From Spirochaetota bacterium (GTDB lineage Bacteria > Spirochaetota > Spirochaetia > Treponematales > Treponemataceae), in NCBI GenBank assembly GCA_022704725.1, contig JAKJFV010000002.1:1-24214 (forward strand): a DNA stretch of 24,214 bases. The letters are read 5' to 3'. The notes beneath the pieces are model-generated. The model was given only the letters and a program-made list of their open reading frames with translations. It ran no database searches and had not been told where the DNA came from. The position numbers and the translations under genes are program-made. Below, one piece after another: positions 2,801 through 21,281 of the stretch. Within the stretch, counting starts at the first letter, position 1; every line of letters begins with the position of its first letter.

Positions 2801-3293
2801 TGTTTAAATCTAACCTGAGTTTATCAATAAAAGAACGTGTATTAATAATTGGAATTTCTTTATCTTTCCAGGAAATAGTACCGTCAAAATGGATGACAGA
2901 AATATGATTCGAAAATTTCTTAATTTCTTCAGTCTTGACCGGCATAAATTCCACAACATCGCTTATGCGTAAACATAACTGCTCATTCTCAATATTTAAT
3001 ACTAAAAACAGGGAATTTACTTGAGGTTCTTTGCCCAGAATTATCATTGGATCAATTACAGTAAAAGGATCCCCGTGCCGGTTAAGCACTCCGTTCACGT
3101 AGGAGGGAACAAAAGGAAGCGGGTACACTGCAAGATCCCGCATTATTTCCCTTGTTAGAGATGCCTGAATTGCATAAGTCTCTGTATTCATATTAAATAC
3201 AAGAAAAGTCCGGCTTGTGTCTTTTACATCTGAAACGGTCTCAAGATCTTTTTCAACAGCTTCTATTTCATCAATCAAATCGTCACTTATCAT
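2793..3293 (-). CDS. cheW: CheW coupling protein
   Basis: FLVFNMNTETYAI, VYPLPFVPSYVNGVLNRHGDPFTVIDP and LCLRISDVVEF match the CheW pattern. First gene of the che unit. Confidence 0.9.
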   Translation of the reverse strand: MISDDLIDEIEAVEKDLETVSDVKDTSRTFLVFNMNTETYAIQASLTREIMRDLAVYPLPFVPSYVNGVLNRHGDPFTVIDPMIILGKEPQVNSLFLVLNIENEQLCLRISDVVEFMPVKTEEIKKFSNHISVIHFDGTISWKDKEIPIINTRSFIDKLRLDLNNA

Positions 3294-3302
3294 AATAGAA
3301 TA

Positions 3303-3331
3303 AGTGTAGCCCGATACAAGACCATTGTCAA
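3303..3331 (-). promoter_or_regulatory. sigma70-like promoter of che operon (near-leaderless)
   Basis: TTGACA (3331-3326), 17 nt spacer, TACACT (3308-3303), 9 nt, then ATG (3293). No SD motif. Confidence 0.75.
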
Positions 3332-3362
3332 GAAATTTTGATAAATCGGCTTAGAGATTTTA

Positions 3363-3410
3363 GATTTATTTTTAGACCTTACCATTGCCGAAGGTCAGCT
3401 GCAATAAATC
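3363..3410. other. Stem-loop immediately 3' of lepB
   Basis: gatttatt (3363-3370)/aataaatc (3403-3410) outer stem and gacctt (3375-3380)/aaggtc (3391-3396) inner stem. No U-tract follows it on the lepB strand. Confidence 0.4.
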
Positions 3411-3412
3411 CT

Positions 3413-5182
3413 TTATCTGCTTTTTTCTGCAGTTAATCCCGGAACACCGATTCTTGAAACAGGCCAAAACCTGAAGACAGTTGTACCAAGAATTCTTGCA
3501 GAACTTACTTCTCTTTGCTCAATATTCGAGTAATAACGAACTGAGTAAGCATCATAAGATGTTAATGGTATATAAAAGGTATCGTATGAATGCCTCATAT
3601 CGAGCGAATTAAAGCGGTTGTCGCCCATGAGGAAGTAAGAATCGCGGCTTATATATTGAGGATCTCCGGAAGCCGTATTTTTTGGAAATACCGGCATATT
3701 TCTTGAATCATTGAGAACAATATACGTATGTAAATCTTCAGCCTGGTTCAGCAGCTCATTAATACGTTCATCCTTCGATAAAGACTGAACAGTTCCGCCC
3801 AGGAGTATGAGTTCTGTATTGCGGACAATAAGCCTGCCGAATACTAATTTTGACATAATATTTAGTTTATACATTGCCTGTTCATACATGTCTAAATTTT
3901 CCGGTATTGTACTCGACCACGATGTCATAAACTCATTAAACCACTTTACGCCGGCATCGGAAGAGAGCAATTTACGGGTCAAAGTAACATTCTGTGAAAA
4001 AAGATAATACTCATTCAATTCCTGTTCAGATAAAAAGGACGAGACGTTAATACCTTCATCATTTACTTCTTTTGGTAAAAAAATACGTTTCGCTTTGGAA
4101 AAAGCTAGGACAAGCTCCTGAGCTTCTCTTTTTGCATCATCGAGAGTAAGCAGCTTTCTTTCTTTCTCGACAGAAAGAAGCGTGCTGTACACCGATTGAG
4201 AAATAGGCACGCGGTTGATTTTACTTTTTAAATTACTACTCAAGCCGTCTACATTCCATTCGGCCCACAGATTATCATCAGCTACCGGGGTAAACTCCTT
4301 GTTTTCGCGGGTCCGGGCAAACAAGGTACCATCAAGCATGACAAGCTGTTCGCCCCCTTCTCCGCATACCCTCTTAACCAGAGGATCAGCCTTCATCTCC
4401 CCGTATTCATCGACATTTAAATTTACCTTGGTAAAGGTTAACATAAAAACAATTTGAGAAATAAAGTTTTTAACCTCGGATTTACGGGTCGTTTCATAAT
4501 GAGGATTTCTAAAAACAACAATATCACCCCGTTTATAGGAGCGGATAGACGGCAGACCGACATCGGACAGGGGAAATTTGGGACCGGAGGGAGTTTTAAA
4601 TACAACAACTCTGTCTTTTATAAGGAACTCGGGAACCATCGATTCCGAGGGTATTTCATACAACTGAAAAATAAAGATATTTACCAGCAGGACAATTAAC
4701 GCAGCCTGAATAAAGGCATCTATCCAGCTGAATGCTTCTAATACTGCTTTTTTTACAGGATGTTTCTTTTTCGGGGGAAGTTCCGCTCTCGATAATTCAA
4801 GATCGGGATTATTTTTGTATACTCTTTTTTCAGCCAGTAAATATAACAGTACATTTGCACAAACCGTGATTATTACCCAAAAAATAACTGATACAACATC
4901 AAGAATATACGGAGTCCCGTATGCACCGGCTCTTCTAATAACAAAGGCAATAAGATGCACAAAAGGCAGGTACTCGTAGAGTTTCCTTACAAGAGGCAGC
5001 ATTGCGGCATCATTTACTCTCAGGAATTTTCTAAAGCCTATGTTAAAAAGGAATGCTGTAAATGAAAGAGAAATAAAAACAGCAAATAAAGAAATATCAA
5101 ACGATACAGAAACTGATAAAAGAGAAAATACGGCAGAGCTTACAAGAGCAGCTGCCTGGAAATACATTATTTTTTTAGTCAT
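3413..5182 (-). CDS. lepB: Signal peptidase I, long form with polytopic N-terminus
   Basis: Box B IPSESM (catalytic Ser), box C RGDIVVF, box D LVKR (Lys), box E GDNRFNSLD, C-terminal FRFWP. Start moved from the track's 5209 to the ATG at 5182 (MTKKIMYF) because the candidate -10 lies at 5197-5192. Confidence 0.92.
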   Translation of the reverse strand: MTKKIMYFQAAALVSSAVFSLLSVSVSFDISLFAVFISLSFTAFLFNIGFRKFLRVNDAAMLPLVRKLYEYLPFVHLIAFVIRRAGAYGTPYILDVVSVIFWVIITVCANVLLYLLAEKRVYKNNPDLELSRAELPPKKKHPVKKAVLEAFSWIDAFIQAALIVLLVNIFIFQLYEIPSESMVPEFLIKDRVVVFKTPSGPKFPLSDVGLPSIRSYKRGDIVVFRNPHYETTRKSEVKNFISQIVFMLTFTKVNLNVDEYGEMKADPLVKRVCGEGGEQLVMLDGTLFARTRENKEFTPVADDNLWAEWNVDGLSSNLKSKINRVPISQSVYSTLLSVEKERKLLTLDDAKREAQELVLAFSKAKRIFLPKEVNDEGINVSSFLSEQELNEYYLFSQNVTLTRKLLSSDAGVKWFNEFMTSWSSTIPENLDMYEQAMYKLNIMSKLVFGRLIVRNTELILLGGTVQSLSKDERINELLNQAEDLHTYIVLNDSRNMPVFPKNTASGDPQYISRDSYFLMGDNRFNSLDMRHSYDTFYIPLTSYDAYSVRYYSNIEQREVSSARILGTTVFRFWPVSRIGVPGLTAEKSR

Positions 5183-5191
5183 ACAACTCCC

Positions 5192-5220
5192 AGTATAGAA
5201 AAAAAACAAAGAATAATCTA
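5192..5220 (-). promoter_or_regulatory. sigma70-like promoter of lepB
   Basis: TAGATT (5220-5215), 17 nt, TATACT (5197-5192), 9 nt (gggagttgt), then ATG 5182. Confidence 0.6.
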
Positions 5221-5224
5221 CAAT
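5196..5224 (+). promoter_or_regulatory. sigma70-like promoter of fumarase gene (leaderless)
   Basis: TAGAAA (5196-5201), 17 nt, TACAAT (5219-5224), 6 nt, then ATG 5231. No SD. Confidence 0.65.
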
Positions 5225-5230
5225 TGTTAC

Positions 5231-6835
5231 ATGAATTTAAGTTTTTTTGATTTTTATCCGCATACAGCTACCGAAGATGCTGTAGTAATTTCCCATAAAG
5301 ATTTACCGCATGAGCTTCTGTCAATATCCGATGCTGCTTTGTACCGTTTGGTGAGCGAATCGTTTAAGAGGCTTTCATTTACCTTTACAAGGTCCCATAT
5401 AGAACACCTTATTCAAGCGGTTCTGTCAGATAATGCATCTGATAATGACCGTTATGTATGTGCTTCCCTATTAAAAAATGCTCAGTGCGCTTCTTCATTT
5501 GATCTGCCTCTCTGTCAGGATACAGGAATTGCACATATCTTTTCATGGATTCCTCCTAACGTACTTTTGACTGATAATGCACGTTCAATTATCAGCAAGG
5601 CTGTGTCGGATGTCTACCGCGATCATAATCTGCGATACTCCACAACAATTCCCCTGAATTTTTACGACGAAAAAGATCCCCGGAACAATCTGCCGTGCCA
5701 GACTTTTTTATTTAATGAAAAGCTTAATCCTTCATTTTCAGATGAAGCAGAACCGCACGCTTCATTTCTATTTTGTGCAAAGGGAGGCGGCTCATCGAAT
5801 AAAACTGTTTTTATTCAGGGAACGAAGGCGGACTTAACAGAAGAGAAATTTGATGCCTTACTAAAAGAAAAAATTAAGGCACTGGGAACAAGCGCATGCC
5901 CTCCCTATACTATTGCTGTTGTTGCAGGAGGACTGAGTCCTGAACAAAATCTTATGACATTAAAATTAGCAACCTGCGGCTGTATTATTCAAAATGAGCA
6001 CAGCTTCCGCGATGAAAAACTTGAGCAGAGACTTATGGAGATTGCAGAAAAGGCAGGTTACGGAGCACAATTCGGCGGAACAAAGGCAGCCGTAGAAGCT
6101 GTTGTAATAAGGCTGCCGCGTCATGGAGCAAGCTGTCCAATTTCTATTGGAGTTTCCTGTTCAGCCCATAGAAATCTAAAAACATTTATAACGAAAGACG
6201 GACTATATATTGAAAAAACAGTAACAGAGTTGTCGGGTATAGAGGGGTTTTCGCAGGCTGTTTCTTTTGCAGACAACAAAATTGATCAGGTAATGCACAT
6301 CAATACATCTTCCGGCATCAATAAGCTTATTCAGGAAATTTCCTATTTAAAACCCGGAACCCGGCTGTATCTTTCGGGTAACATACTGGTGGCCCGCGAT
6401 GCTGCTCATGCAAGATGGAAAAAATTGATTGATGATGGCAAAGACTTACCCGATTATGCAGTCAGGTATCCAATTTGCTACGCAGGACCTTCAAGAACAC
6501 CGACCGGATTCCCCTTGGGAAGTTTCGGTCCGACAACTGCAGGACGGATGGATTCATATGCAGAAATCCTTATGCAGCGGAATGCGGCGCGGATTACCCT
6601 GGCAAAGGGAAATAGAAGCAGTACATGGAAAGAAGGATGCATAAAATATAATTCGTGCTACCTTGGAACCATAGGAGGCGCTGCAGCACTTATCACAAGC
6701 GAATATATAGTAAGCGCACAAGTGATTGATTATCACGACTTAGGAATGGAAGCCGTTCACCTTGTAGAAGTAAAAAATCTTCCAGTTTTTATGTTGATAA
6801 ACGGAAAAGGAGAGGATTTTTATGAACAAGTCTGA
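5231..6835 (+). CDS. fumA: Class I (Fe-S) fumarate hydratase, fused alpha+beta domains
   Basis: Three Fe-S Cys motifs (PLCQDTG, ACPPY, SCSAHR) plus KGGGSSN, VARDAAH, GPTTAGRMD and AKGNRS. The fumA/fumB assignment cannot be resolved from sequence. Confidence 0.88.
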   Translation: MNLSFFDFYPHTATEDAVVISHKDLPHELLSISDAALYRLVSESFKRLSFTFTRSHIEHLIQAVLSDNASDNDRYVCASLLKNAQCASSFDLPLCQDTGIAHIFSWIPPNVLLTDNARSIISKAVSDVYRDHNLRYSTTIPLNFYDEKDPRNNLPCQTFLFNEKLNPSFSDEAEPHASFLFCAKGGGSSNKTVFIQGTKADLTEEKFDALLKEKIKALGTSACPPYTIAVVAGGLSPEQNLMTLKLATCGCIIQNEHSFRDEKLEQRLMEIAEKAGYGAQFGGTKAAVEAVVIRLPRHGASCPISIGVSCSAHRNLKTFITKDGLYIEKTVTELSGIEGFSQAVSFADNKIDQVMHINTSSGINKLIQEISYLKPGTRLYLSGNILVARDAAHARWKKLIDDGKDLPDYAVRYPICYAGPSRTPTGFPLGSFGPTTAGRMDSYAEILMQRNAARITLAKGNRSSTWKEGCIKYNSCYLGTIGGAAALITSEYIVSAQVIDYHDLGMEAVHLVEVKNLPVFMLINGKGEDFYEQV

Positions 6836-7187
6836 TGCTCAGAAAAGCATTCTCAATGAAGAAGAGGCCCTTGAACGTTTCGGGGGAGAAATTGAGTTAT
6901 ACGAAGAAATACTATTGATGTTTGTTAATGAGCCTCAGTTTTCTCTTAACGAAGTGCAGGAATACATAATCAAAGGGAGAAGTACCGAGGCTGCAAGCTG
7001 TGTTCATCGATTAAAAGGAACCGCAGGTACAATTGGGGCAGATAAACTATATAAAGCAGCCTCGGATGCAGAATCTGTATTACGGGGTAAAACAGAAGGA
7101 AATATTGATGCGCTTCTTGTGCAGGTTTCAAAGTATTACACGGAAGCCGAGAACTTTATTCGAATGAGGATGAATAAACATTCATAA
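6822..7187 (+). CDS. Stand-alone Hpt (histidine phosphotransfer) domain protein
   Basis: 121 aa; ALERFGG..ELYEEILLMF and the Hpt signature VHRLKGTAGTIGA. SD AAGGAGAGG (6807-6815) lies inside the fumarase 3' end; 14-nt overlap. Confidence 0.88.
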   Translation: MNKSDAQKSILNEEEALERFGGEIELYEEILLMFVNEPQFSLNEVQEYIIKGRSTEAASCVHRLKGTAGTIGADKLYKAASDAESVLRGKTEGNIDALLVQVSKYYTEAENFIRMRMNKHS

Positions 7188-7893
7188 AGTTGATATTTAC
7201 CTGGTTAAGATCCTCAACCCTTATTGAACGCAAAGAACTAAGTTGTGTATAAACGCTAAAAATATCAGCAGGAATAGTCATTAGTTCATCCTTCAAAGTC
7301 TGATACGGTCCATCCGTTTCAAGCAGCATCCATTCAAGCGGAAGAAGGGACGCACACCGCAGCGCATTTTTATGATTATTAAGAAGCGGTTTTCCGAAAG
7401 AAAAATAAGCATTAATACCTTTTTTTCTTAATGATGCAGCCTCTTCCGGTGAATATGAGTACGAGTGGAAAACAACAGCTTTTAATGTTCTTAATTGAGC
7501 AGATGAGGCAAAGATTTTGTCGAGCGCCTTCCTGCAGTGAATTATGAGTGGCTTATTATACTGTTGAGCCAGTTCAAGCTGAGCATACCAGACATCTTCC
7601 TGCTTTTTTATGTTTTCCTTATATTCAGTGGTAAATAAATCAAACCCGGCTTCTCCTACTGCATCAGGATGTTGAGTCTTTAAAATTTTTTCAAGAGTAA
7701 AAACAAGGGAATGATCAGGATTTTGAGGATGAACGCCAAAGGATGTATATATAAGTCCGGGATATTGTTTTTTTAAAAGGCATAGTTTCTCCCATTCCTT
7801 TTCGCTGTGGGCGGCAGAACAAACCGGAGAATTTTCAAAGGGCTGCCATGAGTCATACACTGAACAATGAATATGAGAATCACTGTATATCAT
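7156..7893 (-). CDS. tatD: TatD family metal-dependent hydrolase/DNase
   Basis: Metal ligand motifs DSHIH, VGEAGFD, IIHCR, VFHSY and LLETDGP. Confidence 0.92.
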   Translation of the reverse strand: MIYSDSHIHCSVYDSWQPFENSPVCSAAHSEKEWEKLCLLKKQYPGLIYTSFGVHPQNPDHSLVFTLEKILKTQHPDAVGEAGFDLFTTEYKENIKKQEDVWYAQLELAQQYNKPLIIHCRKALDKIFASSAQLRTLKAVVFHSYSYSPEEAASLRKKGINAYFSFGKPLLNNHKNALRCASLLPLEWMLLETDGPYQTLKDELMTIPADIFSVYTQLSSLRSIRVEDLNQVNINFMNVYSSSFE

Positions 7894-7899
7894 ACAAAG

Positions 7900-7928
7900 A
7901 CTATACGTAATTTAACAAAAAAAGTCTA
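7900..7928 (-). promoter_or_regulatory. sigma70-like promoter of tatD (leaderless)
   Basis: TAGACT (7928-7923), 17 nt, TATAGT (7905-7900), 6 nt, then ATG 7893. No SD. Confidence 0.7.
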
Positions 7929-7985
7929 ATAATAGTTTCTAAACATCCGAAAATATAAGTGATATCCACAATGGAGGTAACTAGT

Positions 7986-8204
7986 ATGGAATGTTATTCA
8001 TTAAAAGGTCATGCAAGCTCAAATGATTATATGATGATAATGAGAGAAATGGATGAAGGATATGTAGTACGCATTGTCCGCGATAAGGACGGTTACGAAG
8101 ACATTACCACAGATTTTATTTCGCGGGATCTTTTTGAAAGCTGCGTCCGCACAGGTTACGTAACAAAAGTAGAAATAAGCGAAATAACAGCTGTTACTGC
8201 GTAG
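7986..8204 (+). CDS. Small acidic hypothetical protein (72 aa)
   Basis: Strong SD GGAGG (7973-7977) 8 nt before ATG 7986 (MECYSLKG...). It fills an otherwise non-coding gap. The track's start at 7959 is probably too early. Confidence 0.75.
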   Translation: MECYSLKGHASSNDYMMIMREMDEGYVVRIVRDKDGYEDITTDFISRDLFESCVRTGYVTKVEISEITAVTA

Positions 8205-9390
8205 TATTTTCTAAAAAGTGGAACATTCTAATAATTTTTAGACCGTCAAACCGGTCATGAAATGCATATTCAAGATTCCGGTTTGATTTATGATGAATTA
8301 TATATATTTTCTGCCAGTCTTGAAAAAAGCCGTCTTGTTCTAAAAACGGCATAAGAATACTCAAACTATTTGAAACCTCATGGAAAAAGTCCTCCATGGG
8401 GTTTTTATTTTTTGTCCTTTTAAAAATATCAATAAACTTAAAGAGAATTTCGTACGAAGTTTTTTCAAATACCCTGCATACATTTCCTTCTATTATTTCA
8501 CTAATTTTTTTCCCTGTACCAAAAGGCACACGTTGTGAAATTCTGGAAGAGGGAAAAACCCGGCATGGTAAATATACTATATCCTGGTGAACGTGAAGTT
8601 TTATAAGAGCCTGCAGAAAATAAAAATCTTCCCCTGCGCACCGTGTATTCATACCTCCGCACTCTGCATACGCTTGAGCGGTACATACAATTGTCGGTCC
8701 GAGCGCAACAGGATAATAAGGCGTGCCGCATCTGTATAAAAGACTGCTGTGTTCAAGCAGATAGTCTTCATAGATCCTCACAGCCTTCTCTTCTTCCTCA
8801 ACTGCCCCTCTTTGATGTGAAAAGCCTGTTAATGCCCACGCAGAGGCAATAGAAGGGGAAGATGGGGACACATTCATGAAATTTGAAAAAAATGCCTGCA
8901 GACAGCAAATGTAGGATGAGCTTACAAGAGTATCAGCATCGAGGCAGGCTAATACAGATGCGCCATGCAATACTGCGTAGTCCATGGCGGTCTTTCTGGC
9001 AAGGCCCGCTCCCTGCGTATCCTTGAACAATAAATCATCACTGCTGCAGTCAAGAACAATCAAATTTAATAATGGATGATCATTATATTCGCTCATAGTA
9101 AGACGCTTAAGTTCATACATCATTTTCGCATTATTTTCACGAATCGAAACGGCATCGGAATTCCGTGCATTTACACAGCAGATAATAGAAACCGGAACTG
9201 CTTTAGTTTTTTGATGAGCAAGATACGTAAGCGAACTTAAATGCAGAGAACGGAGTGTCGAAAAAAAAGAAGGGTATTCATTATGAACAGGAATACAGAT
9301 GCATATTGGTTGTACTTGAATAAAAGGTACTACAACTGCTGTATTTTTTACCGCCTTTTTTGTGCAGTATTTTTCAAGTGTATTCTTCAT
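8194..9390 (-). CDS. Soluble GT-A fold (GT2-like) glycosyltransferase
   Basis: CIPVHNE, GAGLARKTAMD, DxD motif ACLDADT, and GEDFYF. No evident TM segment. Its ATG overlaps the miaA stop (TAATG). Confidence 0.78.
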   Translation of the reverse strand: MKNTLEKYCTKKAVKNTAVVVPFIQVQPICICIPVHNEYPSFFSTLRSLHLSSLTYLAHQKTKAVPVSIICCVNARNSDAVSIRENNAKMMYELKRLTMSEYNDHPLLNLIVLDCSSDDLLFKDTQGAGLARKTAMDYAVLHGASVLACLDADTLVSSSYICCLQAFFSNFMNVSPSSPSIASAWALTGFSHQRGAVEEEEKAVRIYEDYLLEHSSLLYRCGTPYYPVALGPTIVCTAQAYAECGGMNTRCAGEDFYFLQALIKLHVHQDIVYLPCRVFPSSRISQRVPFGTGKKISEIIEGNVCRVFEKTSYEILFKFIDIFKRTKNKNPMEDFFHEVSNSLSILMPFLEQDGFFQDWQKIYIIHHKSNRNLEYAFHDRFDGLKIIRMFHFLENTTQ

Positions 9391-10385: not shown

Positions 10386-10389
10386 ATGC

Positions 10390-11652
10390 TTAAGTTATTT
10401 TAGCAATAACGCATTTTAAGTATTCAGATTTTGAATACCCCGACAACACAGGGTGATCGGGAGCAGCAAATCGTTTTTCCAATATTTGAAGATTTTTGTG
10501 GGCATCACTGGATGCGTGATCGAGCACTGAATAAAAGGTGTTTGCATCAAAAAAATGAGAACAGGAGCAGGTAACAAGGATTCCCCCGGGCGAGAGAATC
10601 TTCATTGCTCTAAGATTTATTTCTTTGTATCCCCCGTATGCTTTTTTAATATCTTTTGCACTTTTAGTAAAGGCAGGAGGATCAAGAATTATGACATCAA
10701 ATTTTTCACCCTTTTGTTCCGCCTCTTTGAGGTAATCAAAAACATCGGCGCATACAGCACGTACAGATGAACCTGCCTTGTTCAATCCGGCGTTCACCGT
10801 AATCGCAGCAGAGGCTTCTTCTGAGATATCAACACAGACTACCTCACGGGCCCCTGAAGAAAAGGCATGTAAGCCGAAAGCTCCAACATGGGAAAAAGCA
10901 TCAAGCACTCTTTTCCCTTTGCATAATGATGCAGCGGCTTTTCTATTGAACTTTTGATCAAGGAAGTAGCCTGTTTTTTGACCGTGAGCAAGATCGATCT
11001 GCAGTAATACAGAATTCTCAGAAATTGTTATAAGAGGATTACTCTCGCCGCCAATCCAGCCGGTGGAAAGTTCAAGTCCCTCTTTTTCACGTACAGAAGC
11101 ATCGCTTCGCTCGTAAATGCCGTAAGGTTTTATTACAGAACGCAGTGAATTAATAATTTCTTTTCTAAATTTTTCACATGCAAGAGCAAGAAATTGAACA
11201 ACCAAAATTGTTCTATTTTCAATAGTTCTATAATGCTCGACAATTAAGCCGGGAAGAAAATCTGCTTCGGCAAATACAAGACGAAAGGAATCTTCAAGTG
11301 AAAAATAATGAAGACGTAAATCCAAAGCATCTTGAATTTTTTTATCAAAAAAACTTTGATTGAACTGTTCATTTTCAATTTTACCGCGTGTTAACAGCCT
11401 GACAGTAATCTTGGAAGTATTATTAAACACTCCGGTTCCAAGATACATTCCTGACTTAGAAAAAACCTGAACAATACTTCCATCGGGAGCCTTTGTTTCT
11501 TTTAATACAGATTGAACAATTGAGTGCTGTCCCTTATCGTCATAGGCATCTGCTTTCACAAAACCTATTTCATTGTCAAATATCCAAGGGAAGCCTGCTT
11601 TTATTTGATCTTCTTCTTTTGCGTTAAGAAAAACGCGTATATTTTTCATCAT
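10390..11652 (-). CDS. rlmI: Class I SAM-dependent RNA m5C methyltransferase (RlmI/YccW family)
   Basis: N-terminal PUA-like GFPWIFDNEI, EADFLPGLIV, GQKTGYFLDQK, VLDAFSHVG, DVIILDPPAF, and catalytic TCSCS. Confidence 0.88.
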   Translation of the reverse strand: MMKNIRVFLNAKEEDQIKAGFPWIFDNEIGFVKADAYDDKGQHSIVQSVLKETKAPDGSIVQVFSKSGMYLGTGVFNNTSKITVRLLTRGKIENEQFNQSFFDKKIQDALDLRLHYFSLEDSFRLVFAEADFLPGLIVEHYRTIENRTILVVQFLALACEKFRKEIINSLRSVIKPYGIYERSDASVREKEGLELSTGWIGGESNPLITISENSVLLQIDLAHGQKTGYFLDQKFNRKAAASLCKGKRVLDAFSHVGAFGLHAFSSGAREVVCVDISEEASAAITVNAGLNKAGSSVRAVCADVFDYLKEAEQKGEKFDVIILDPPAFTKSAKDIKKAYGGYKEINLRAMKILSPGGILVTCSCSHFFDANTFYSVLDHASSDAHKNLQILEKRFAAPDHPVLSGYSKSEYLKCVIAKIT

Positions 11653-11660
11653 AGTTGCTT

Positions 11661-11689
11661 AGTGTACGGGTAATATAGTAAAAAATCAA
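11661..11689 (-). promoter_or_regulatory. sigma70-like promoter of rlmI-miaA-GT2 unit (near-leaderless)
   Basis: TTGATT (11689-11684), 17 nt, TACACT (11666-11661), 8 nt, then ATG 11652. No SD. Confidence 0.7.
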
Positions 11690-14600: not shown

Positions 14601-14724
14601 AACCTTCGGCTGCTGTCCATACTTGATTAACATAATCGGCCCATATTACCGAAGAGACTCGGGATTGAGATGTCAGAAAAGAGATTGAAAATAAAAAAAA
14701 TAAAAATACACTGATGCGTTTCAT
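11686..14724 (-). CDS. Membrane sensor adenylate cyclase: signal peptide/TM, Reg_prop beta-propeller repeats, Y_Y_Y domain, TM, class III cyclase
   Basis: Repeated D..G.(L/I)W(I/V)GT..G and GL.NN.(I/V)..I blades; YTNLAPGNYTFKVWA (Y_Y_Y); TM FWIFIGLVICGIIYSIIVI; LLLNILP; VLFADIVGFT, IKTIGDAYM and YDLWGDTVNVASRME. SD GGAGG (14736-14732) precedes ATG 14724. Confidence 0.92.
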   Translation of the reverse strand: MKRISVFLFFLFSISFLTSQSRVSSVIWADYVNQVWTAAEGLPGNTVTDLLQKSDGYLYIGTYDGLVRFDGVKFTILNKNTVSDFRCVSARTIFEDTDGNLWVGSNDEGVAKISSSGIEMFTTDNGLPNNSIRDIAQDKSGNIWIGTSNGVVFLTPSGKFVSPEGLDAYDDSSCLVISLYCDTAGRIWLSTTKKHGLYYYSSGKFTQYTAFNAIDYSTVTAITQDDTGSFWYGLTQKGVVRVSEGNYKLYGSQEGMLETTVNDIYLDNSNSLWFGTEKGVVLYKQGQFSTYTEAEGLTNNNVKKIIEDREGSIWYATDRGGVQKMSPGKFRTVTLSSPVNCISESDEGLVWIGTDNGLLCYEKGVFIENELTKMLKGIRIRHIENTDKGDLLVSTYAKYGQVLMTKEGQITYWTTKHGLAGDRVRVAIEDKSQNLWIGTTTGLTKIDYVAAELTSYTKNEGLENEYVMCLYEDTEGYLWIGTDGGGICIMKDGKIISVLTTKDGLAGNVIFKIMQDKNGVYWISTGTGLTRIEGNKFKNFTASDGLGTDSIFQIMIDYTDTVWMTSNRGISSISLSVLEAASHKEGVFLDPKFYTKNDGLRSGGVTSTSLCMYDSLGRLWFTLIDGFAIYDPVKIKSNPVPPLVEIEDISIDNVKEKFSANKVLKIPAGTKRVDIEYTALSFVSTDMIRFRYILEGFENDYSQLTSSRSVSYTNLAPGNYTFKVWAANSDMLWCENPASITIIQKPFLYQMPVFWIFIGLVICGIIYSIIVIRINRLKREQLRLETMVQMKTIDLEIERDNSDRLLLNILPKPIAEILKERKNQIIADKFENVSVLFADIVGFTKITSSASPETIIFALNDLFSRFDERAQTLGIEKIKTIGDAYMAVCGLPEPNPMHAAAMIQFARGMLLDIEQYNLTSSLKFKMRIGINSGDVIAGVIGKTKFIYDLWGDTVNVASRMESSGEPGSIHVSEETWNLAKDSVCFTDEVTVDVKGKGSMKTYYVSISEMSNT

Positions 14725-14748
14725 CAAACAGCCTCCATTAGGGCTATT

Positions 14749-15522
14749 TTACAGCATATTCTCCATTGTATAAAGGTTTCCCATAGAAATATTTTGCGAA
14801 GTAAGCTGTTCAACCATCCATTGTGCAGCTCTTACGGCTCCTACGGCAAAACCTTCTCTGGATCTGGCACGATGAGTGAGCTCTATAGTATCTGCTTTTG
14901 AGTCAAAAAATACCGTATGAGTTCCGGGTTCAGATCCAAAACGCGTACTTGAAACATGGAGCTCGTGTGCTTTCGGCGCCTCATGAAAGGCATCCGTTAC
15001 AATTTCTGTTTTTTTCGGACAGACCGACATGAGGTGTTTTGCAATATCCAGAGCAGTACCGGACGGGCTGTCTGCCTTCTGTGTATGATGAGCTTCCCAA
15101 ATTGCTGTGTCGTATTCGTCATACTGTGAAAATAAAATTCCTGCTTCCTTGACTATTTTATAAAAAAGATTAACACCTATAGAATAGTTGGCGGCATAAA
15201 AAAGACAGGAATTATTTTTTTTAACAAGGGTATTTACATAATCGAGATGTTTCAGCCAGCCTGTAGTTCCGACAATAACAGGAACTCCTGTAGTAACAAG
15301 AACTTCTATATTTTTTAATACTGCATCGGGATGAGTAAACTCAATTACAGCATCAGCCTTGCTTGCTATGACAGCACCGGCCAGGTCATCAGAGGATTTA
15401 ATACGGCATGAAGCATCTTGTGCATAAAGATCAATAGTTGAGGCAATACCCACACCCCGCTTAACAGCTTCAACTTCTATCATATGCCCCATTTTTCCGT
15501 ACCCGACTAATGCAATATTCAT
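14749..15522 (-). CDS. dapB: 4-hydroxy-tetrahydrodipicolinate reductase
   Basis: NIALVGYGKMG, IEFTHPD, VIVGTTGW, EAHHTQKADSPSGTA, ELTHRARSREGFAVGAV. ATG at 15522 follows the SD-like AAGGGG. Confidence 0.95.
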   Translation of the reverse strand: MNIALVGYGKMGHMIEVEAVKRGVGIASTIDLYAQDASCRIKSSDDLAGAVIASKADAVIEFTHPDAVLKNIEVLVTTGVPVIVGTTGWLKHLDYVNTLVKKNNSCLFYAANYSIGVNLFYKIVKEAGILFSQYDEYDTAIWEAHHTQKADSPSGTALDIAKHLMSVCPKKTEIVTDAFHEAPKAHELHVSSTRFGSEPGTHTVFFDSKADTIELTHRARSREGFAVGAVRAAQWMVEQLTSQNISMGNLYTMENML

Positions 15523-15571
15523 CAACAACCCCTTATTTTAAAAACTGATATTTAAATTTCACAAACCTTAT

Positions 15572-16909
15572 TTATAGAAGAGCATCGGCAATAAAAGCTT
15601 CATGCAGAATCCGGACAACCTGATGTACTTCGGTTTCTTCACACAGCATACTTATATTAACCTTTGAAGCTCCCTGACTGATCATCTGAACATTAATGCC
15701 TTCTTTATCGAGTGCGGAAAAACACGAAGAGAGAATTGCACTTGATCTTTTAACATCGCAAATTATTGTAACTATTGCTTTACCCTTTTTAACATTAATG
15801 TCAGCAACTTTTTTAAGATCCTCTACAAGCCCGTCAACATCTTTTTTTGAATTAACTGTTAAAGAAACAGAAACTTCGCTTGTAGCAATTACATCGATAC
15901 TTACATTCCATTTTAAAAACTGATTAAAAATATGGGCTAAAAAGCCTGATGCACCGAGCATTCTGGTTGAAACAATGTCATACAAGGTAACACCCTTAAC
16001 CGCAGTAATCGCTCTAACCGGAGAAACTTCCTTTGTATGCTTTTCAACAATGATTGAACCAGGTGAAGTAATATTATACGAGTTTTTAACACGAACAGGT
16101 GTTCCGGTTCTTCTGCACGGCATCATAGAACGGGGGTGCAATACCTGAGCGCCAAAGTACGCGAGTTCTGCTGCCTCTTCATAGGTTGCCTCTTCCACAG
16201 GATGTGCCGTCTTAACAATTCTCGGGTCGGTTGTCAAAATTCCGTCAACATCTTTCCAAGTCTGTATTTCATCAACCTTAAGCGCAGCGCCGAGCATTGT
16301 TGCGGTCAAATCACTGCCGCCTCTTCCTAAGGTAGTAATATAGCCGTTAACATCTTTTGCAATAAAACCTGTTACTATTGGAATTTCTTTCTGACTGCCG
16401 GAAGTATAGTCCTTAAAAGCAAGAGGAATAGAAGTCCACACCGATTCATCAAGTTCTGCAGCCATAAAATTTGAATCTGAAAGAAAACCTGCATCCCAGG
16501 CATCATAAAAGCGTGACGGTGTTCCTTGCGAGGCAAGATAAGAGGCCATCATTCTAACAGATAACCGTTCTCCAAAGGAAACAAGATAATCACGGGTCCG
16601 CTTAGTAAGTTCTTTAAGCATAGAAATACCTGTCAGCAGTGTTTTGAGTTCTTCGAGAAGACAGAAGATTTCACTATCATTAACATTCAAATCTTTTGCG
16701 GTGTTAATATGAAGAGCTTCTACGTTGGAAATATCTACAGTTCCCGACACTGCTTCATCTGCAGCATCAAGTAAAAAATCGGTAGTATCGCCCATAGCAG
16801 ACAAGACCACCAGGGGCTGTCTGTCCTTATATGCCTGAATAATTGAGGCAACATGTCTAATGCGTTCAGCGTCGGCTACAGAAGAGCCTCCAAATTTCAT
16901 AACTATCAT
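15572..16909 (-). CDS. lysC: Monofunctional aspartate kinase with two ACT domains
   Basis: [50 protein letters not shown], and ACT motifs TSEVSVSLT and [11 protein letters not shown]. Confidence 0.96.
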
Positions 16910-16915
16910 GTTCGA

Positions 16916-16944
16916 ATATTAGCACAAATACAGAATAATTTCTA
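16916..16944 (-). promoter_or_regulatory. sigma70-like promoter of lysC-dapB (leaderless, extended -10)
   Basis: TAGAAA (16944-16939), 17 nt ending TGc, TAATAT (16921-16916), 6 nt, then ATG 16909. No SD. Confidence 0.6.
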
Positions 16945-16999
16945 CATACATATACATATTTTTGGTATAAAAATACATTTTCAAATACCTTTCTCAGGC

Positions 17000-17028
17000 T
17001 TGCACAGCTTATGCTAATAGTCTATATT
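17000..17028 (+). promoter_or_regulatory. sigma70-like promoter of RNB gene (leaderless)
   Basis: TTGCAC (17000-17005), 17 nt, TATATT (17023-17028), 6 nt, then ATG 17035. Confidence 0.65.
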
Positions 17029-17034
17029 TTGTGT

Positions 17035-19023
17035 ATGCTTAAAAAAGGTTCTGTTGTTTCCTACAAAAAAAATCCTGCTGTTATTATAGAAGCAGGAGAT
17101 AAATTTACTATTGAGTATCCGCAATACCCTGCAAAAAAGGGCGGAAAAATTACCTATGCAACGCAAAGTGTACGGTCAAAGGACGTAGTATTTTTACATG
17201 AGGGTCCCATCCCTTCTGTAAAGAACATTGCTGAACAAGCCTTCTGTAATTCCGAAATTCATAAAACTGCAGCTGCTCTAGAAGAATGCTGGGAGCTTCT
17301 TGTTTCAGATGAGTCAACACAAGATGAAACGCTTACAATACAGGACCTGGGTGAATTATCTACAGGAAGCTATGAAGCAATGCAGTCTTTCCATCTCTAT
17401 AATCTTCTTATAACCCTTCCTTTTTTTACACAACTTGCAGCTGAGGATCAAAAACTTCCTCAATTTACCCCTCTTTCACCGGAAAAGGTTGCAGTTTTAA
17501 AAGCCAAAGAAAATGAAAAAGAATTTGAAGCCCAAAGAAGACAGGAATTCATAGGCAGACTAAAAAGCAGAAAGATTGATCCTTCCCTTGACAGCCAGTT
17601 CATGCAGGAAATTGAAGCATTAGCTCTCGGTAAAACTGATAAATCTAAATTTTTAAGTGAAGCAGGTCTGTCTGAAACACCGGAATCGGCACACTCTATA
17701 TTACTGCAGACAAACTATTGGCCCTTATCAAAAAATCCTCATCCATCCCGGTTTGGTCTTTCTATGCAGTCTTCACAGGAAACCCTCTCATCGCCTCCAG
17801 AAGAAGAAAGAGTTGTACTTAATCACAGAGCATTTGCAATCGATAACAAATGGAGTACCGATCCTGATGATGCTGTTGCATTTGACGGAACCTATATATG
17901 GATACATGTTGCAGATCCTGCATCAACCGTAATACCCGATAGCGCAATAGACATAAGTGCAAGAAACCGCGGATCAACCCTCTATATACCCGAAGGTGCG
18001 TCGCGCATGCTAAGTGAAGAATGTTTGGAAGATTATGCACTGGGACTTTCAAGAAAGTCAGATAAATCCAGCATCTCCGCATACAGCGATATTAATACTC
18101 CAATGGAGCAAAAAGGAACGGTCTCACGAGCGCTGTCTTTTAAAATTCTCCTTGATGCTGCAGGGGCGATTGATGAGGTAGAAGTTTTAAAAACCCTGGT
18201 TGAAATAAAGCGGTTAAGTTATGATTATGCCGACACCATTAAAGACCTTCCAGAAATTGCACCGCTTTTTGCAATAGCACAGAAGAATATTGAAAGAAGA
18301 AAAAAGGCTGGAGCTGTTTTTATAGAACTGCCGGAAGTCAGCATACATGTAATTAAAGACGGCGAAGGTCTTCCGTCGGCAGTGATTTCTGAATCCAATA
18401 AAACAGAATCCTCTGCAGTAGTGAGAGAATTTATGTTATTGGCAGGAGAAGCAGCCGCCCGTTTTGCATTTAAAAACAGCATACCCTTCCCCTTTGTGAG
18501 TCAGGATGCACCGGATATACCCAAAGAACTTCCTTCAGGACTTGCGGGTCAGTATAGACTAAGGCGCTGCATGAGAAGCCGCTCTGTGGGTGTAATACCG
18601 TCCCAACACGCCGGTCTTGGAATAGGCATGTACAGTCAGGTAACAAGTCCTTTGCGCAGGTACGGGGATCTTGTAGCGCATCAGCAATTACGTTCGTTTA
18701 TAGATAAAAGAACGCTTCTTTCAAAAGATGAGGTTCTGGAACGAATCAGTGCAGGAGACGCTGCGGCATCCGCAACGGTAAAAGCCGAAAGGAAGAGCAA
18801 TCTCCATTGGACGCTGTTTTTTTTACTTCAGAATCCTGAATGGAAAGGTACAGCTGTTGCTGTTGAGGATAAAGGAAAACAGTTTGTTTTTTTAATTCCT
18901 TCTTTAGGTCTGGAAACTATTCTTATTCCTTCCAAAAAAGTACAGCTTAACGATGAAATCGAGGTTAAACCAGGCAAAATTAATATAAGTGAATTGACCG
19001 TGTCATTTATGCAAGCAGATTAG
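17035..19023 (+). CDS. RNB-domain 3'-5' exoribonuclease (RNase II/R family)
   Basis: Catalytic AIDNKWSTDPDDAVAFD, WIHVADP, RGSTLYIPEG, EFMLLAG and YSQVTSPLRRYGDL, with a short S1-like C-terminus. Start moved to ATG 17035 (MLKKGSVV) on promoter position. Confidence 0.9.
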   Translation: MLKKGSVVSYKKNPAVIIEAGDKFTIEYPQYPAKKGGKITYATQSVRSKDVVFLHEGPIPSVKNIAEQAFCNSEIHKTAAALEECWELLVSDESTQDETLTIQDLGELSTGSYEAMQSFHLYNLLITLPFFTQLAAEDQKLPQFTPLSPEKVAVLKAKENEKEFEAQRRQEFIGRLKSRKIDPSLDSQFMQEIEALALGKTDKSKFLSEAGLSETPESAHSILLQTNYWPLSKNPHPSRFGLSMQSSQETLSSPPEEERVVLNHRAFAIDNKWSTDPDDAVAFDGTYIWIHVADPASTVIPDSAIDISARNRGSTLYIPEGASRMLSEECLEDYALGLSRKSDKSSISAYSDINTPMEQKGTVSRALSFKILLDAAGAIDEVEVLKTLVEIKRLSYDYADTIKDLPEIAPLFAIAQKNIERRKKAGAVFIELPEVSIHVIKDGEGLPSAVISESNKTESSAVVREFMLLAGEAAARFAFKNSIPFPFVSQDAPDIPKELPSGLAGQYRLRRCMRSRSVGVIPSQHAGLGIGMYSQVTSPLRRYGDLVAHQQLRSFIDKRTLLSKDEVLERISAGDAAASATVKAERKSNLHWTLFFLLQNPEWKGTAVAVEDKGKQFVFLIPSLGLETILIPSKKVQLNDEIEVKPGKINISELTVSFMQAD

Positions 19024-19090
19024 AGCCCTTACAAAAGTCTGTTAACTTTCTCAAGCGGCTTCATTAGTTTATTAAATATTTTATTGAAAA

Positions 19091-19119
19091 AAAAACACGC
19101 CTTTTAAGGGCGTGTTTTT
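19091..19119. terminator. Bidirectional intrinsic terminator between RNB gene and ABC ATPase
   Basis: Perfect 11-bp inverted repeat aaaaacacgcc (19091-19101)/ggcgtgttttt (19109-19119). The A9 run on the left gives a U-tract for the minus strand and T5 on the right for the plus strand. Confidence 0.9.
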
Positions 19120-19139
19120 GTTAACAACCTGATATAAAA

Positions 19140-20252
19140 TTATTCAGATTTTACAACTTCACAAATTGTAAGGTCAGTTTCTCTATCGAAGAACTTAGCT
19201 TTTTCCATCTGTGGAGTAAAGTTAGCAGTATCACCGATCTGGAACTTATTGTCAGGAGCAGTGATTGCTATTACAGATTGTGTCTTTGTATTAAGATGCA
19301 GGTGTGTTTCAGCACCGAGCGGCTCAATAACAGAGATCTTCATCTGCATATTGTTGTTTGGAGTTGGAGTTTTTGTATAAACAAGGTCTTCCGGACGAAT
19401 ACCGAAAGATACTTCTTTACCAATATAGCTCTTAAGAGTTTTAGCCTGATCTTCAGTCGGGGTCATTTCAAATGAACCTTCATCTGCAATAAGCTTTCCG
19501 CCCTTTTCAACAATTTTTACGGTGAGGAAGTTCATGGGAGGTGATCCGATGAAACCTGCAACGAATTTGTTAATTGGATGATTGTACAAGTACAATGGTG
19601 AACCAATCTGCTGGATCTTTCCGTCTTTCATTACAACGATTTTGTCTGACATAGTCATAGCTTCAATCTGATCGTGTGTAACATAGATCATTGTTGCCTT
19701 TAATCTGTGATGAAGATCAGAGATTTCGGCACGCATCTGAACACGGAGTTTAGCATCAAGGTTAGAAAGAGGTTCGTCGAAAAGGAAAACCTTCGGGTTA
19801 CGAACAATAGCGCGTCCTACAGCAACACGCTGACGCTGACCGCCGGAAAGAGCCTTTGGTTTGCGGTCAAGAAGCTTTTCAATATCGAGGATACGTGCAG
19901 CTTCATTAACACGGCGTTCAATTTCTGCTTTGTCTGTCTTACGGATTTTTAATCCGAATGCCATGTTGTCATAAACACTCATGTGCGGATACAAAGCGTA
20001 GTTCTGGAATACCATTGCAATATTACGATCTTTTGGCGGAACATCATTCATCAATTCACCATCGATGTAAAGTTCACCTTCTGTAATATCTTCCAAACCT
20101 GCAACCATTCGGAGAGTTGTTGATTTACCGCAGCCTGATGGTCCTACAAATACAACAAATTCCTGATCTTCTACAACGATGTTTGCGTTATCTACTGCGC
20201 GAACGTTACCGTCATAAACCTTACCAATACCTTTAAGTTCAACTTTTGCCAT
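19140..20252 (-). CDS. MalK/MsmX/UgpC-family carbohydrate ABC transporter ATPase
   Basis: Walker A GPSGCGKST, Q-loop VFQNYALYPHM, signature LSGGQRQ, Walker B FLFDEPLSNLD, H-loop YVTHDQ, and a TOBE C-terminus. SD AAGGAGG (20270-20264) precedes ATG 20252. Confidence 0.96.
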   Translation of the reverse strand: MAKVELKGIGKVYDGNVRAVDNANIVVEDQEFVVFVGPSGCGKSTTLRMVAGLEDITEGELYIDGELMNDVPPKDRNIAMVFQNYALYPHMSVYDNMAFGLKIRKTDKAEIERRVNEAARILDIEKLLDRKPKALSGGQRQRVAVGRAIVRNPKVFLFDEPLSNLDAKLRVQMRAEISDLHHRLKATMIYVTHDQIEAMTMSDKIVVMKDGKIQQIGSPLYLYNHPINKFVAGFIGSPPMNFLTVKIVEKGGKLIADEGSFEMTPTEDQAKTLKSYIGKEVSFGIRPEDLVYTKTPTPNNNMQMKISVIEPLGAETHLHLNTKTQSVIAITAPDNKFQIGDTANFTPQMEKAKFFDRETDLTICEVVKSE

Positions 20253-20289
20253 AAAAAGCAAAGCCTCCTTATATTATTTTATAAACCCA

Positions 20290-20318
20290 ATTATACCTTC
20301 TAAAATAGCATCTGTCAA
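20290..20318 (-). promoter_or_regulatory. Perfect-consensus sigma70 promoter of the ABC ATPase (leadered)
   Basis: TTGACA (20318-20313), 17 nt, TATAAT (20295-20290). 37 nt to the ATG, including SD AAGGAGG. Confidence 0.85.
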
Positions 20319-21079
20319 ATAAAATTATGAAAAAAAGCAGCAATTTTGTCGAACAAAGGTGTTAATAGAACAAGAAGTACGATTATCAGTATTGAGGGAA
20401 GAAAATTTGCGGTTTTAATCTTTCGAAGGTGCAGTAAATTAATACCAATCATGACAATTATAGAACCCCCGACGCCCGTTAGTTCTTTAAGCATTATATC
20501 ACTGACAAAGGGAGATACAAACTGGGAAAGAAGCGTAAGCAGGCCCTGATAGATAAATATTGATACAGCAGAAAAGGCGGTTCCTAATCCCATTGCTGCA
20601 GCAAAGGCGATTGACATAAAACCGTCTAAAACAGATTTTGTAAAAATAATGCTGTAGTCATTGTTTATTCCTGCCTGAAAAGATCCTAATACTGCCATTG
20701 CGCCCACACAAAAAAGGACAGATGCATTTAAAAAAGCATAGGCAAAATTTGATTTTACAGGCGGCATTTCCGGATCTGCCAGAGTTACCGAAGGACCTTT
20801 TTTGTTTTTTGAAATACCTTTTTCTATCAGCGTTCCAAGAGAAAGTATTTTACCGTCAATATCTGCCGCACTGCCGAGAATTCCACCGATTATGAGGGAT
20901 AATGTAAGAAAAATAACATTCTGATACGAAAAAGCCATTTGTACACCAAGAACAATAGTAACAATACCTGCCCCGGTACTAATTACATCGGATAATTCAC
21001 TTGTAATTTTTTTTGCAAATAATAAACCAATAATCGAACCAATAATTACTGCTGCGCAGTTTACAAATACCGCTATCAT
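20315..21079 (-). CDS. DUF554 (YdfK/YqgA-like) membrane protein
   Basis: VFVNCAAVIIGSIIG, LFCVGAMAVLGSFQAG, KSVLDGF, ELTGVGG, KIKTANFLPS; multiple TM segments. Confidence 0.88.
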   Translation of the reverse strand: MIAVFVNCAAVIIGSIIGLLFAKKITSELSDVISTGAGIVTIVLGVQMAFSYQNVIFLTLSLIIGGILGSAADIDGKILSLGTLIEKGISKNKKGPSVTLADPEMPPVKSNFAYAFLNASVLFCVGAMAVLGSFQAGINNDYSIIFTKSVLDGFMSIAFAAAMGLGTAFSAVSIFIYQGLLTLLSQFVSPFVSDIMLKELTGVGGSIIVMIGINLLHLRKIKTANFLPSILIIVLLVLLTPLFDKIAAFFHNFI

Positions 21080-21085
21080 GCAGCG

Positions 21086-21114
21086 ATGGTAGAGTTAATA
21101 CGCAAAATTGTCAA
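21086..21114 (-). promoter_or_regulatory. sigma70-like promoter of DUF554 gene (leaderless)
   Basis: TTGACA (21114-21109), 17 nt, TACCAT (21091-21086), 6 nt, then ATG 21079. No SD. Confidence 0.78.
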
Positions 21115-21176
21115 TCATTATACCGCCTTATCAGTCTAAAATTTTATTTTGATTACTTTTATCTAAAACAAAATAC

Positions 21177-21205
21177 TAGATTAATTATTAAAATAAAATT
21201 ATACT
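21177..21205 (+). promoter_or_regulatory. Candidate sigma70-like promoter of M16 peptidase pair (leadered)
   Basis: TAGATT (21177-21182), 17 nt, TATACT (21200-21205). About 70-nt leader with SD AAGGAG (21270-21275). The region is very AT-rich, so chance matches are possible. Confidence 0.5.
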
Positions 21206-21281
21206 CATTTCCATAATAAAATGCTAATTTGAAGAAGTTATAGTACTCCCTCATTTTTGCCATTAATTTAAGGAGTGAATT

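Follow-up and report, generated by a model that had tools for sequence, protein, structure and literature searches.

Eight genes in a 24,214-nt stretch of DNA (the window) from an uncultured, manure/wastewater member of the Treponemataceae appear to be transcribed from promoters of the housekeeping (sigma-70) type which lie so close to the start codon that the mRNAs would be leaderless or nearly leaderless. We give this reading, which treats the arrangement as a family trait of the Treponemataceae, a probability of roughly 0.85. RNA polymerase usually initiates at the seventh base past the -10 hexamer, and a transcript from a promoter with a gap of 6 nt between the hexamer and the ATG should therefore open on the A of the AUG. 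For the cheW, rlmI and lepB transcripts the predicted start would be 1-3 nt ahead of the ATG. Such mRNAs would carry no ribosome-binding site, and presumably the ribosome and the initiator tRNA bind directly to the 5'-terminal AUG. This mode would exist beside an SD-led majority and would serve roughly between one in eight and one in four of the transcription units. What we observe is the geometry of the promoters, their positional enrichment in the genome, their co-occurrence with a -35, the preference for ATG, the spacing in orthologues and the ends of RNA contigs; where exactly transcription begins and how the mRNAs are translated is inferred.

All eight arrangements of a -35 hexamer, a 17-nt spacer, TAnnnT, 6-9 nt and an ATG were recovered at the positions where the initial annotation had placed them (Table 1), and Pfam supports the gene names in the window. 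Five of the genes have a gap of 6 nt, the others being rlmI (8 nt) and cheW and lepB (9 nt), and the start codon is ATG in all eight. It had also been proposed that the eight genes have a -35 hexamer in common. The 17-nt spacing holds, but the identity was judged generously: scored as matches out of 6 to TTGACA, the hexamers reach 6/6 in two genes, 4/6 in four and 3/6 in two. None of GGAG, GAGG and AGGA is found in the gap of seven genes, and lepB alone has a GGAG-type motif there. The lepB and fumarase genes are divergent and the distance from ATG to ATG is 48 nt, which leaves no space for two leaders. The rlmI promoter is embedded in the 3'-terminal part of the adenylate cyclase gene. Two units in the window are clearly SD-led, the sugar-transport ATPase and the secreted M16 peptidases. 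In contrast to the eight, the gene for the MalK-like ATPase is an ordinary leadered unit (Table 1).

Table 1. Promoters close to start codons in the window, with one leadered unit for contrast; the gap is the number of nt between the -10 hexamer and the ATG.
Gene or operon	Positions (strand)	-35	Spacer (nt)	-10	Gap (nt)	ATG	Remark
cheW operon	3291..3331 (-)	TTGACA	17	TACACT	9	3293	predicted 5'UTR 0-3 nt
lepB-like signal peptidase (S26)	5180..5220 (-)	TAGATT (3/6)	17	TATACT	9 GGGAGTTGT	5182	
class-I fumarase	5196..5233 (+)	TAGAAA	17	TACAAT	6	5231	
tatD	7891..7928 (-)	TAGACT	17	TATAGT	6	7893	
rlmI-like / miaA / GT operon	11650..11689 (-)	TTGATT	17	TACACT	8	11652	
lysC-dapB-cyclase operon	16907..16944 (-)	TAGAAA	17	TGc-TAATAT	6	16909	
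RNB-domain ribonuclease	17000..17037 (+)	TTGCAC or TGCACA	17 or 16	TATATT	6	17035	
DUF554 membrane protein	21077..21114 (-)	TTGACA	17	TACCAT	6	21079	
MalK-like ATPase (contrast)	20252..20318 (-)	TTGACA	17	TATAAT			perfect promoter, ~30 nt before AAGGAGG-led gene

The simplest objection is that these arrangements arise by chance, as AT-rich noise in short intergenic regions with some of the hexamers supplied by in-frame TAA or TAG stops. The total number of promoter-like sites agrees with this, since positions 2500-22000 hold 54 of them against 53.8 in shuffled sequence. A count equal to the shuffle expectation means that the signal is in the position relative to the ATG and not in the number of sites, and a window-wide promoter scan is uninformative because it ignores the position relative to starts. 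The initial annotation had named a lack of genome-wide enrichment of TAnnnT 6-9 nt upstream of starts as grounds for refutation, and this test did not refute it. It was run on the 2.1-Mb MAG (63% complete, 40% GC) with a home-made ORF caller and neutral longest-ORF starts, and a complete promoter was defined as TAnnnT together with a -35 of at least 4/6 at a spacer of 16-18, scored at unit-leading genes. The result is a sharp peak at gaps 6-7, with 26 complete promoters at gap 6 and 11 at gap 7 over a background of 5.1 per position (Poisson 5e-11 for gap 6). The gaps of 8 and 9 nt, those of rlmI, cheW and lepB, are weakly enriched in the genome (8 and 6 against 5.1).

A -35 hexamer accompanies 58% of the gap-6 hexamers compared to ~20% at other gaps, i.e., it is three times commoner. 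Complete promoters precede 6.7% of first-start ATGs, 0.74% of ATGs deep in frame and 2.2% of intergenic ATGs that are not starts. With gaps of 6-8 nt 70 of 76 starts are ATG (92%), against 72% overall (p=1e-5). In-frame stops do inflate TA[AG]nnT at gaps 0, 6 and 12, and the lysC hexamer TAATAT itself opens with an in-frame TAA; nevertheless the gap-6 peak stays when stop-derived hexamers are left out by counting TA[CT]nnT, 28 against ~12. The peak is repeated in a second genome of the genus (G002; 16 and 11 against 3.6) and in a complete genome of another genus (G018; 10 against 2.4), and the spacing is kept across genera despite turnover of the sequence. Chance is thus effectively refuted as an explanation, and we regard it as highly improbable. 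The eight genes do have promoters of the leaderless type.

The original description of this pattern as "pervasive" did not survive the genome-wide counts. The leaderless type makes up only ~5-7% of the genes and roughly 12-25% of the transcription units; as proxy estimates, direct counting gives 12-17% of units, and among recognisable promoters the share is ~22-27%. The window, with 7-8 of its 10 units of this type, is an outlier. A canonical strong SD is found on ~40-50% of genes although the starts were called crudely. The genome mixes leaderless-type and SD-led starts, as had been proposed.

The orthologues keep the spacing to the ATG while the letters of the hexamer and the discriminator vary. 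In all 13 genomes compared the RNB gene has TAnnnT 5-9 nt, mostly 6 nt, ahead of its ATG, and for lepB an ATG-proximal arrangement is found in 13 of 14. The tatD gap is 6 nt in five genomes with four different hexamers, and the discriminators differ (G001, G002, G003 and G005). For fumarase it is 6 nt in G002, in G003 and, with TATAGT in a different sequence, in G017 of another genus. The cheW promoter is present in three genomes of the genus. The rlmI gap is 8 nt within the genus and 6 nt in G007, G004 and others. The lysC gap is 6 nt in four genomes of the genus and 7 nt in G017, and the gene is SD-led in eight other genera; the DUF554 gap is 6 nt within the genus and also in G011 (TATAAT) and 9 nt in three genomes, and the gene is SD-led in five. 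The starts of lysC and DUF554 are not miscalled, since their SD-led orthologues start at the same ATG. Miscalling was also ruled out for tatD, by the DSHIH motif at residues 5-9, and for RNB by its orthologues, whose alignment confirms the proposal that the true start is the second ATG (17035) and not the first (17011).

For lysC, DUF554, tatD and rlmI the type of start, leaderless or SD-led, depends on the genus. A further reading, held at a little better than even odds, is that these Treponemataceae orthologues have repeatedly switched between the two modes, and that RNB and the S26 signal peptidase have remained leaderless-type across the sampled genera.

This bears on the two-tier regime suggested by the initial annotation, in which leaderless starts are reserved for certain functional classes of genes (RNA modification, nucleases, biosynthesis and signalling) and would put these under separate translational control. 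It could be said for such a regime that the clearly SD-led units of the window encode transport and secreted functions, that RNB and lepB are leaderless-type throughout the family, and that the leaderless genes of Leptospira over- or under-represent some COG classes (PMC5243855). The four genes that switch mode do so among genera of one family, however, and lepB, a protein-secretion gene, is itself leaderless-type. Further, the eight-gene sample was picked post hoc. When leaderless-type leading genes were compared to SD-led ones no difference in length, GC3 or A-content of codons 2-11 was found. We consider a split by function unlikely.

The lepB gene was first described as the one exception with an SD-like motif. 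The motif in the gap is real, but the gene is hardly an SD-bearing exception: the GGGAG precedes the predicted +1 and would thus be outside the transcript, and in 10 of the 14 genomes of the family the orthologue has its TAnnnT hexamer (TATACT) at 6-8 nt from the ATG, the distance being 9-10 nt in three of this genus. GGGAG or AGGAG is kept in the gap in three species, and GGGAG is missing from the gap-6 orthologues. The insertion of 3-4 nt (GGG/AGGA) in this genus may be an intermediate between the two modes. A leader of 1-3 nt, as predicted for rlmI, cheW and lepB, already lowers leaderless translation in E. coli. If a second promoter exists upstream, the GGGAG/AGGAG might be used as an SD.

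An alternative is that the eight promoters exist but play a secondary part: most of the protein would be made from longer leadered or polycistronic transcripts starting upstream, and the promoters next to the ATGs would add little mRNA that is translated. The conservation of the lepB GGAG motif in three species is in its favour, and rlmI lies only 33 nt behind the preceding gene. It can be weighed with metatranscriptome data. These are unstranded Logan contigs from strains that are 95-99% alike; we used the ends of the longest contigs listed, and it should be noted that a contig end is not equal to a mapped TSS and can reflect strain variants or low coverage. Among the contigs listed, five of the eight ATGs have an end at a distance of 1-30 nt, and the intergenic stretches in between have no coverage. 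For lepB, whose ATG is at 5182, a contig (X15 rec2) ends at 5183, a single nucleotide upstream. A lysC contig ends at 16896 (ATG 16909) and an RNB contig begins at 17050 (ATG 17035). For rlmI the ends are at 11643 and 11623 (ATG 11652), and for tatD the end is at 7865 (ATG 7893) and the next contig runs from 7981. These ends support the leaderless reading.

Two starts are bridged by RNA contigs, that of cheW from lepB (X15, X16) and that of rlmI from the cyclase gene by one X17 contig in a single run, which means that transcription of upstream genes runs on into both of them as well, or that the libraries contained DNA. For lepB, lysC, RNB and tatD, on the other hand, the listed contigs break off at the ATG or a little way within the gene, and the DNA upstream is uncovered. 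The fumarase/lepB and lysC/RNB pairs are divergent, so read-through into these genes is impossible, and the seven genes other than lepB have no SD which a longer transcript could use. A secondary role for the promoters is in our judgement improbable, and direct leaderless or near-leaderless initiation is preferred.

The pattern is not new to spirochaetes, and what we describe is another, conserved instance of it. The initial annotation named Actinobacteria, Deinococcus and archaea as the best-known cases and omitted the spirochaete records. In Borrelia burgdorferi ~19% of the 5'UTRs are shorter than 10 nt and 85 were called leaderless (PMC5314773), and Leptospira interrogans has ~440 mRNAs with a UTR shorter than 10 nt, half of them shorter than 2 nt (PMC5243855). 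These organisms belong to the same phylum and show the same phenomenon, and the shares found here are in the same range. The difference is that they are cultured pathogens of other families studied by experimental TSS maps, whereas the present evidence from an uncultured genus consists of geometry, conservation and contig ends. In an earlier survey (Zheng et al., 2011, BMC Genomics 12:361) six out of 18 Spirochaetes genomes had TA-led leaderless genes, with a mean of 3.9% of genes (1.8-6.9%) (PMC3160421). The signature is the same, a TA-rich -10-like signal ~10 nt before the start, and the frequency matches ours. That survey predates these uncultured genomes, and conservation and switching at the level of orthologues were not covered there. 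The group C genomes of GeneMarkS-2 (Actinobacteria, Deinococcus-Thermus), in which 25-50% of operons are predicted to be leaderless (PMC6028130), are similar in that the first genes of operons have a Pribnow box at 6-8 nt from their start and that RBS-led genes occur elsewhere in the genome. They differ in that this genome, by our own proxy counts, reaches the bottom of that range at most and has a strong canonical SD on ~40-50% of its genes. In the collection of papers that we searched, none was dedicated to leaderless transcription in Treponema itself, the Borrelia paper (PMC5314773) being the sole match.

No new mechanism is revealed by the finding. It extends the pattern known by experiment from Borrelia and Leptospira to environmental Treponemataceae, which suggests that throughout the phylum a minority of genes is initiated in this leaderless way. 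The switching of mode between orthologues offers a modest but workable approach to the evolution of translation-initiation signals; if it is true, the Treponemataceae would be a comparative system for studying selection for and against leaderless initiation and the passage between modes. There is also a consequence for annotation, as gene callers which assume an SD mis-start genes of the leaderless type. In public calls the RNB start is placed at 17011, which is 8 codons ahead of the true one.

All eight promoter-ATG arrangements claimed for the window in the initial annotation were found as described, and Pfam bears out its gene names: CheW, S26 signal peptidase (lepB), class-I fumarase and Hpt, TatD, an RlmI-like methyltransferase with MiaA and one unassigned gene, LysC with DapB and adenylate cyclase, RNB ribonuclease, a MalK-like ATPase, DUF554 and two M16 peptidases. 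The distance between the last base of the -10 hexamer (TAnnnT) and the ATG, here called the gap, is 6-9 nt, and only in lepB does it contain a GGAG-type motif. By established promoter geometry, the -10 hexamer occupies positions -12 to -7, and a gap of 6 nt therefore sets +1 on the A of the ATG. By analogy with other bacteria, a ribosome carrying initiator tRNA would be recruited directly to such a 5' AUG; where the gap is 8-9 nt, a transcript with 1-3 extra bases is predicted. GeneMarkS-2 likewise gives a distance of 6-8 nt for leaderless genes (PMC6028130). Promoter-like sites in the window region, when simply counted, show no excess (54 against 53.8 in shuffles), so any real signal must lie in the position relative to start codons.

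Features of the window (ATG position for genes; RNA contig ends are among the contigs listed)
Feature	Position	Strand	Gap (nt)	-35 match to TTGACA, 17-nt spacer	RNA contig end	ATGATA start
cheW	3293	-	9	6/6		3288-3293
lepB	5182	-	9	3/6	5183	
fumarase	5231	+	6	4/6		
tatD	7893	-	6	4/6	7865, next contig from 7981	7888-7893
rlmI	11652	-	8	4/6	11643 and 11623	
lysC	16909	-	6	4/6	16896	16904-16909
RNB	17035	+	6	3/6 (4/6 as TGCACA if the spacer is 16 nt)	17050	
DUF554	21079	-	6	6/6		21074-21079
lepB gap, compared with loci L166, L167 and L168	5183-5197	-				
Promoter of rlmI-miaA-GT operon	11650-11689	-				
Promoter at the 18-nt position	14724-14774	-				
Perfect consensus TTGACA-17-TATAAT	20290-20318	-				
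Highest RNA depth	19548-20171					

The window corresponds to contig C222 in a metagenome-assembled genome (MAG) of 2.12 Mb in 463 contigs, 63% complete and with 40% GC. Genes were called in this genome from stop-to-stop ORFs with a codon-bias filter, taking the first ATG/GTG/TTG as start, so that starts were not picked by motif. A complete 5' end was present in 1,417 genes, and their Shine-Dalgarno (SD) signal is highest between -9 and -12. The enrichment of TAnnnT before start codons, which the initial annotation had proposed to look for, peaks at gaps 6-7, with a spike at the single position of gap 6 (6.4-6.6% of genes versus ~3-4% at other positions). In-frame TAA/TAG stops supply part of this spike. 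They are not its whole cause, since an excess survives when such hexamers are excluded: 28 unit-leading genes have a hexamer at gap 6 and 19 have one at gap 7, versus ~12. A co-occurring -35 (at least 4/6 match, spacer 16-18) accompanies 26 of 45 hexamers before unit-leading genes at gap 6, 10 of 22 at gap 7 and 8 of 18 at gap 8, versus ~20% at other gaps; the background for the 26 complete promoters at gap 6 is 5.1 per position (Poisson 5e-11). A complete promoter at gaps 6-8 stands before 6.7% of first-start ATGs, 4.5% of alternative ATGs within 25 codons, 2.2% of intergenic non-start ATGs and 0.74% of in-frame ATGs deep in genes. Genes of this leaderless-type class start with ATG in 70 of 76 cases versus 72% overall (p=1e-5).

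The leaderless-type class is thus real, but a minority. After background subtraction it comprises ~70-100 genes (5-7% of genes, 12-17% of units), and ~22-27% of strong promoters (at least 9 or at least 10 of 12) before unit-leading genes lie at gaps 6-9. The window, with 7-8 of 10 units leaderless-type, is an outlier (binomial 0.0035 at p=0.25), as expected for a stretch flagged for this very feature. In 0.8 Mb of a 99% complete genome of the same genus (G002), the same pipeline counted 16 complete promoters at gap 6 and 11 at gap 7, versus 3.6; in 0.4 Mb of a complete genome of another genus (G018) it counted 6 at gap 5 and 10 at gap 6, versus 2.4.

Orthologues of each gene were located in 30 relatives and the DNA upstream of the aligned start was inspected; no p-value is given across genomes, since relatives are not independent samples. 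Among named organisms, the RNB ribonuclease is closest (51-57% identity) to those of Treponemataceae/Treponema MAGs and isolates, e.g. T. brennaborense and T. rectale. RNB has a TAnnnT 5-9 nt upstream of the ATG in 13 of 13 genomes (~12 genera), and the gap is exactly 6 nt in 9 of these; the hexamers (TATATT, TATAGT, TATACT, TAAAAT, TACACT and others) and the discriminators vary. That orthologues keep the spacing while the sequence turns over is the strongest argument for selection on the distance itself. Public calls P0001 and P0002 start RNB at 17011 (+), giving 670 aa. The orthologue alignment starts at the second ATG, 17035, and together with the conserved promoter this places the start there (662 aa); the public calls exemplify how SD-based callers extend leaderless genes upstream.

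For the signal peptidase, a TATACT-like box, often preceded by TGc, lies at 6 nt in seven genomes, at 7-8 nt in three, and at 9-10 nt in three, namely the source genome (G000), G002 and G003 of the same genus. In these last three a GGG/AGGA insertion of 3-4 nt makes the SD-like motif: between TATACT and ATG stands GGGAGTTGT in G000, GGGAGTTACT in G002 and AGGAGAGCT in G003, and in G001, of the same genus, AGTTGT, with gap 6 and without the motif. The insertion could represent a GGGA-type discriminator, or else a transitional stage between the leaderless and the SD-led mode. Five genomes have tatD at gap 6, using four different hexamers between them, and the gene is SD-led in G004, of another genus. 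Fumarase has gap 6 in the genus and in G017, of another genus, where the sequence differs. For lysC the gap is 6-7 in five genomes, and eight other genera are SD-led at the same ATG (GAGAGG, AGAGGA and similar). For DUF554, four genomes show gap 6 and three show gap 9, and in five the gene is SD-led. The gap of rlmI is 8 in the genus and, by eye, 6 in G004 and in G007, also of another genus; a permissive script flagged three more genomes, at ATGs 1-3 codons off the aligned start. The cheW case (gap 9) is weakly informative, since it is found only in three near-identical sequences of one genus.

DNA near-identical to the window is present in metagenomes of manure, compost and wastewater. RNA was available as contigs from four metatranscriptome runs with strains 95-99% alike. 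The contig ends in the table are as expected of transcripts that start on the ATG or beside it, although the contigs are unstranded and may break at variants, and the listing covers just the longest of them. Among the contigs listed there is no coverage of 16897-17049, between the divergent lysC and RNB starts, nor, among those of run X15, of 5184-5760. Contigs cross the cheW start in X15 and X16 and the rlmI start in X17, which counts against a purely leaderless picture; each gene lies downstream of a same-strand gene, so that read-through reaches both too. The rlmI-miaA-GT promoter is embedded in the final codons of the adenylate cyclase gene upstream; with an intergenic gap of only 33 nt, the unit receives read-through in addition to having an internal promoter.

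We consider it very probable (about 0.85) that at least the five gap-6 genes yield leaderless mRNAs. The interpretation in the initial annotation is partly supported. These genes are leaderless-type; given the fractions found, the pattern is not pervasive genome-wide. Nor is the proposed partition by function into two tiers supported: orthologues change mode between genera, and leaderless-type and SD-led genes do not differ in length, GC3 or 5' A-content. The pattern is not new for spirochaetes. Leaderless genes were predicted in 6 of 18 Spirochaetes genomes, with a mean of 3.9% of genes (Zheng et al., 2011; PMC3160421), and 5'-end mapping found 19% of 5'UTRs below 10 nt in Borrelia (PMC5314773) and ~440 mRNAs with a 5'UTR below 10 nt in Leptospira (PMC5243855).

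The 3' end of the DUF554 gene contains the perfect consensus promoter, which is followed ~30 nt downstream by the MalK-like ATPase gene, led by AAGGAGG. The RNA depth maximum of the window, by far the highest in all four runs, may come in part from conserved ABC ATPase genes of other organisms. A second discrete promoter position was seen in the source genome, where the -10 ends exactly 18 nt before the start of 17 unit-leading genes versus 5.1 per position (p=2.5e-5; e.g. on contigs C32, C127, C277 and C344). Its layout is -10, ~6 nt, AGGAGG/GGAGG, 6-8 nt and ATG, so the transcript should start right at the SD with a minimal leader of 11-12 nt; it replicates weakly (5 versus 3.6 in G002, 5 versus 2.4 in G018). 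Leaderless-type genes often start with ATGATA: 9 of 68 have ATA as their second codon, versus 36 of 940 among the remaining ATG genes (Fisher p=0.002, post hoc), which may reflect what initial transcription or early translation favours.
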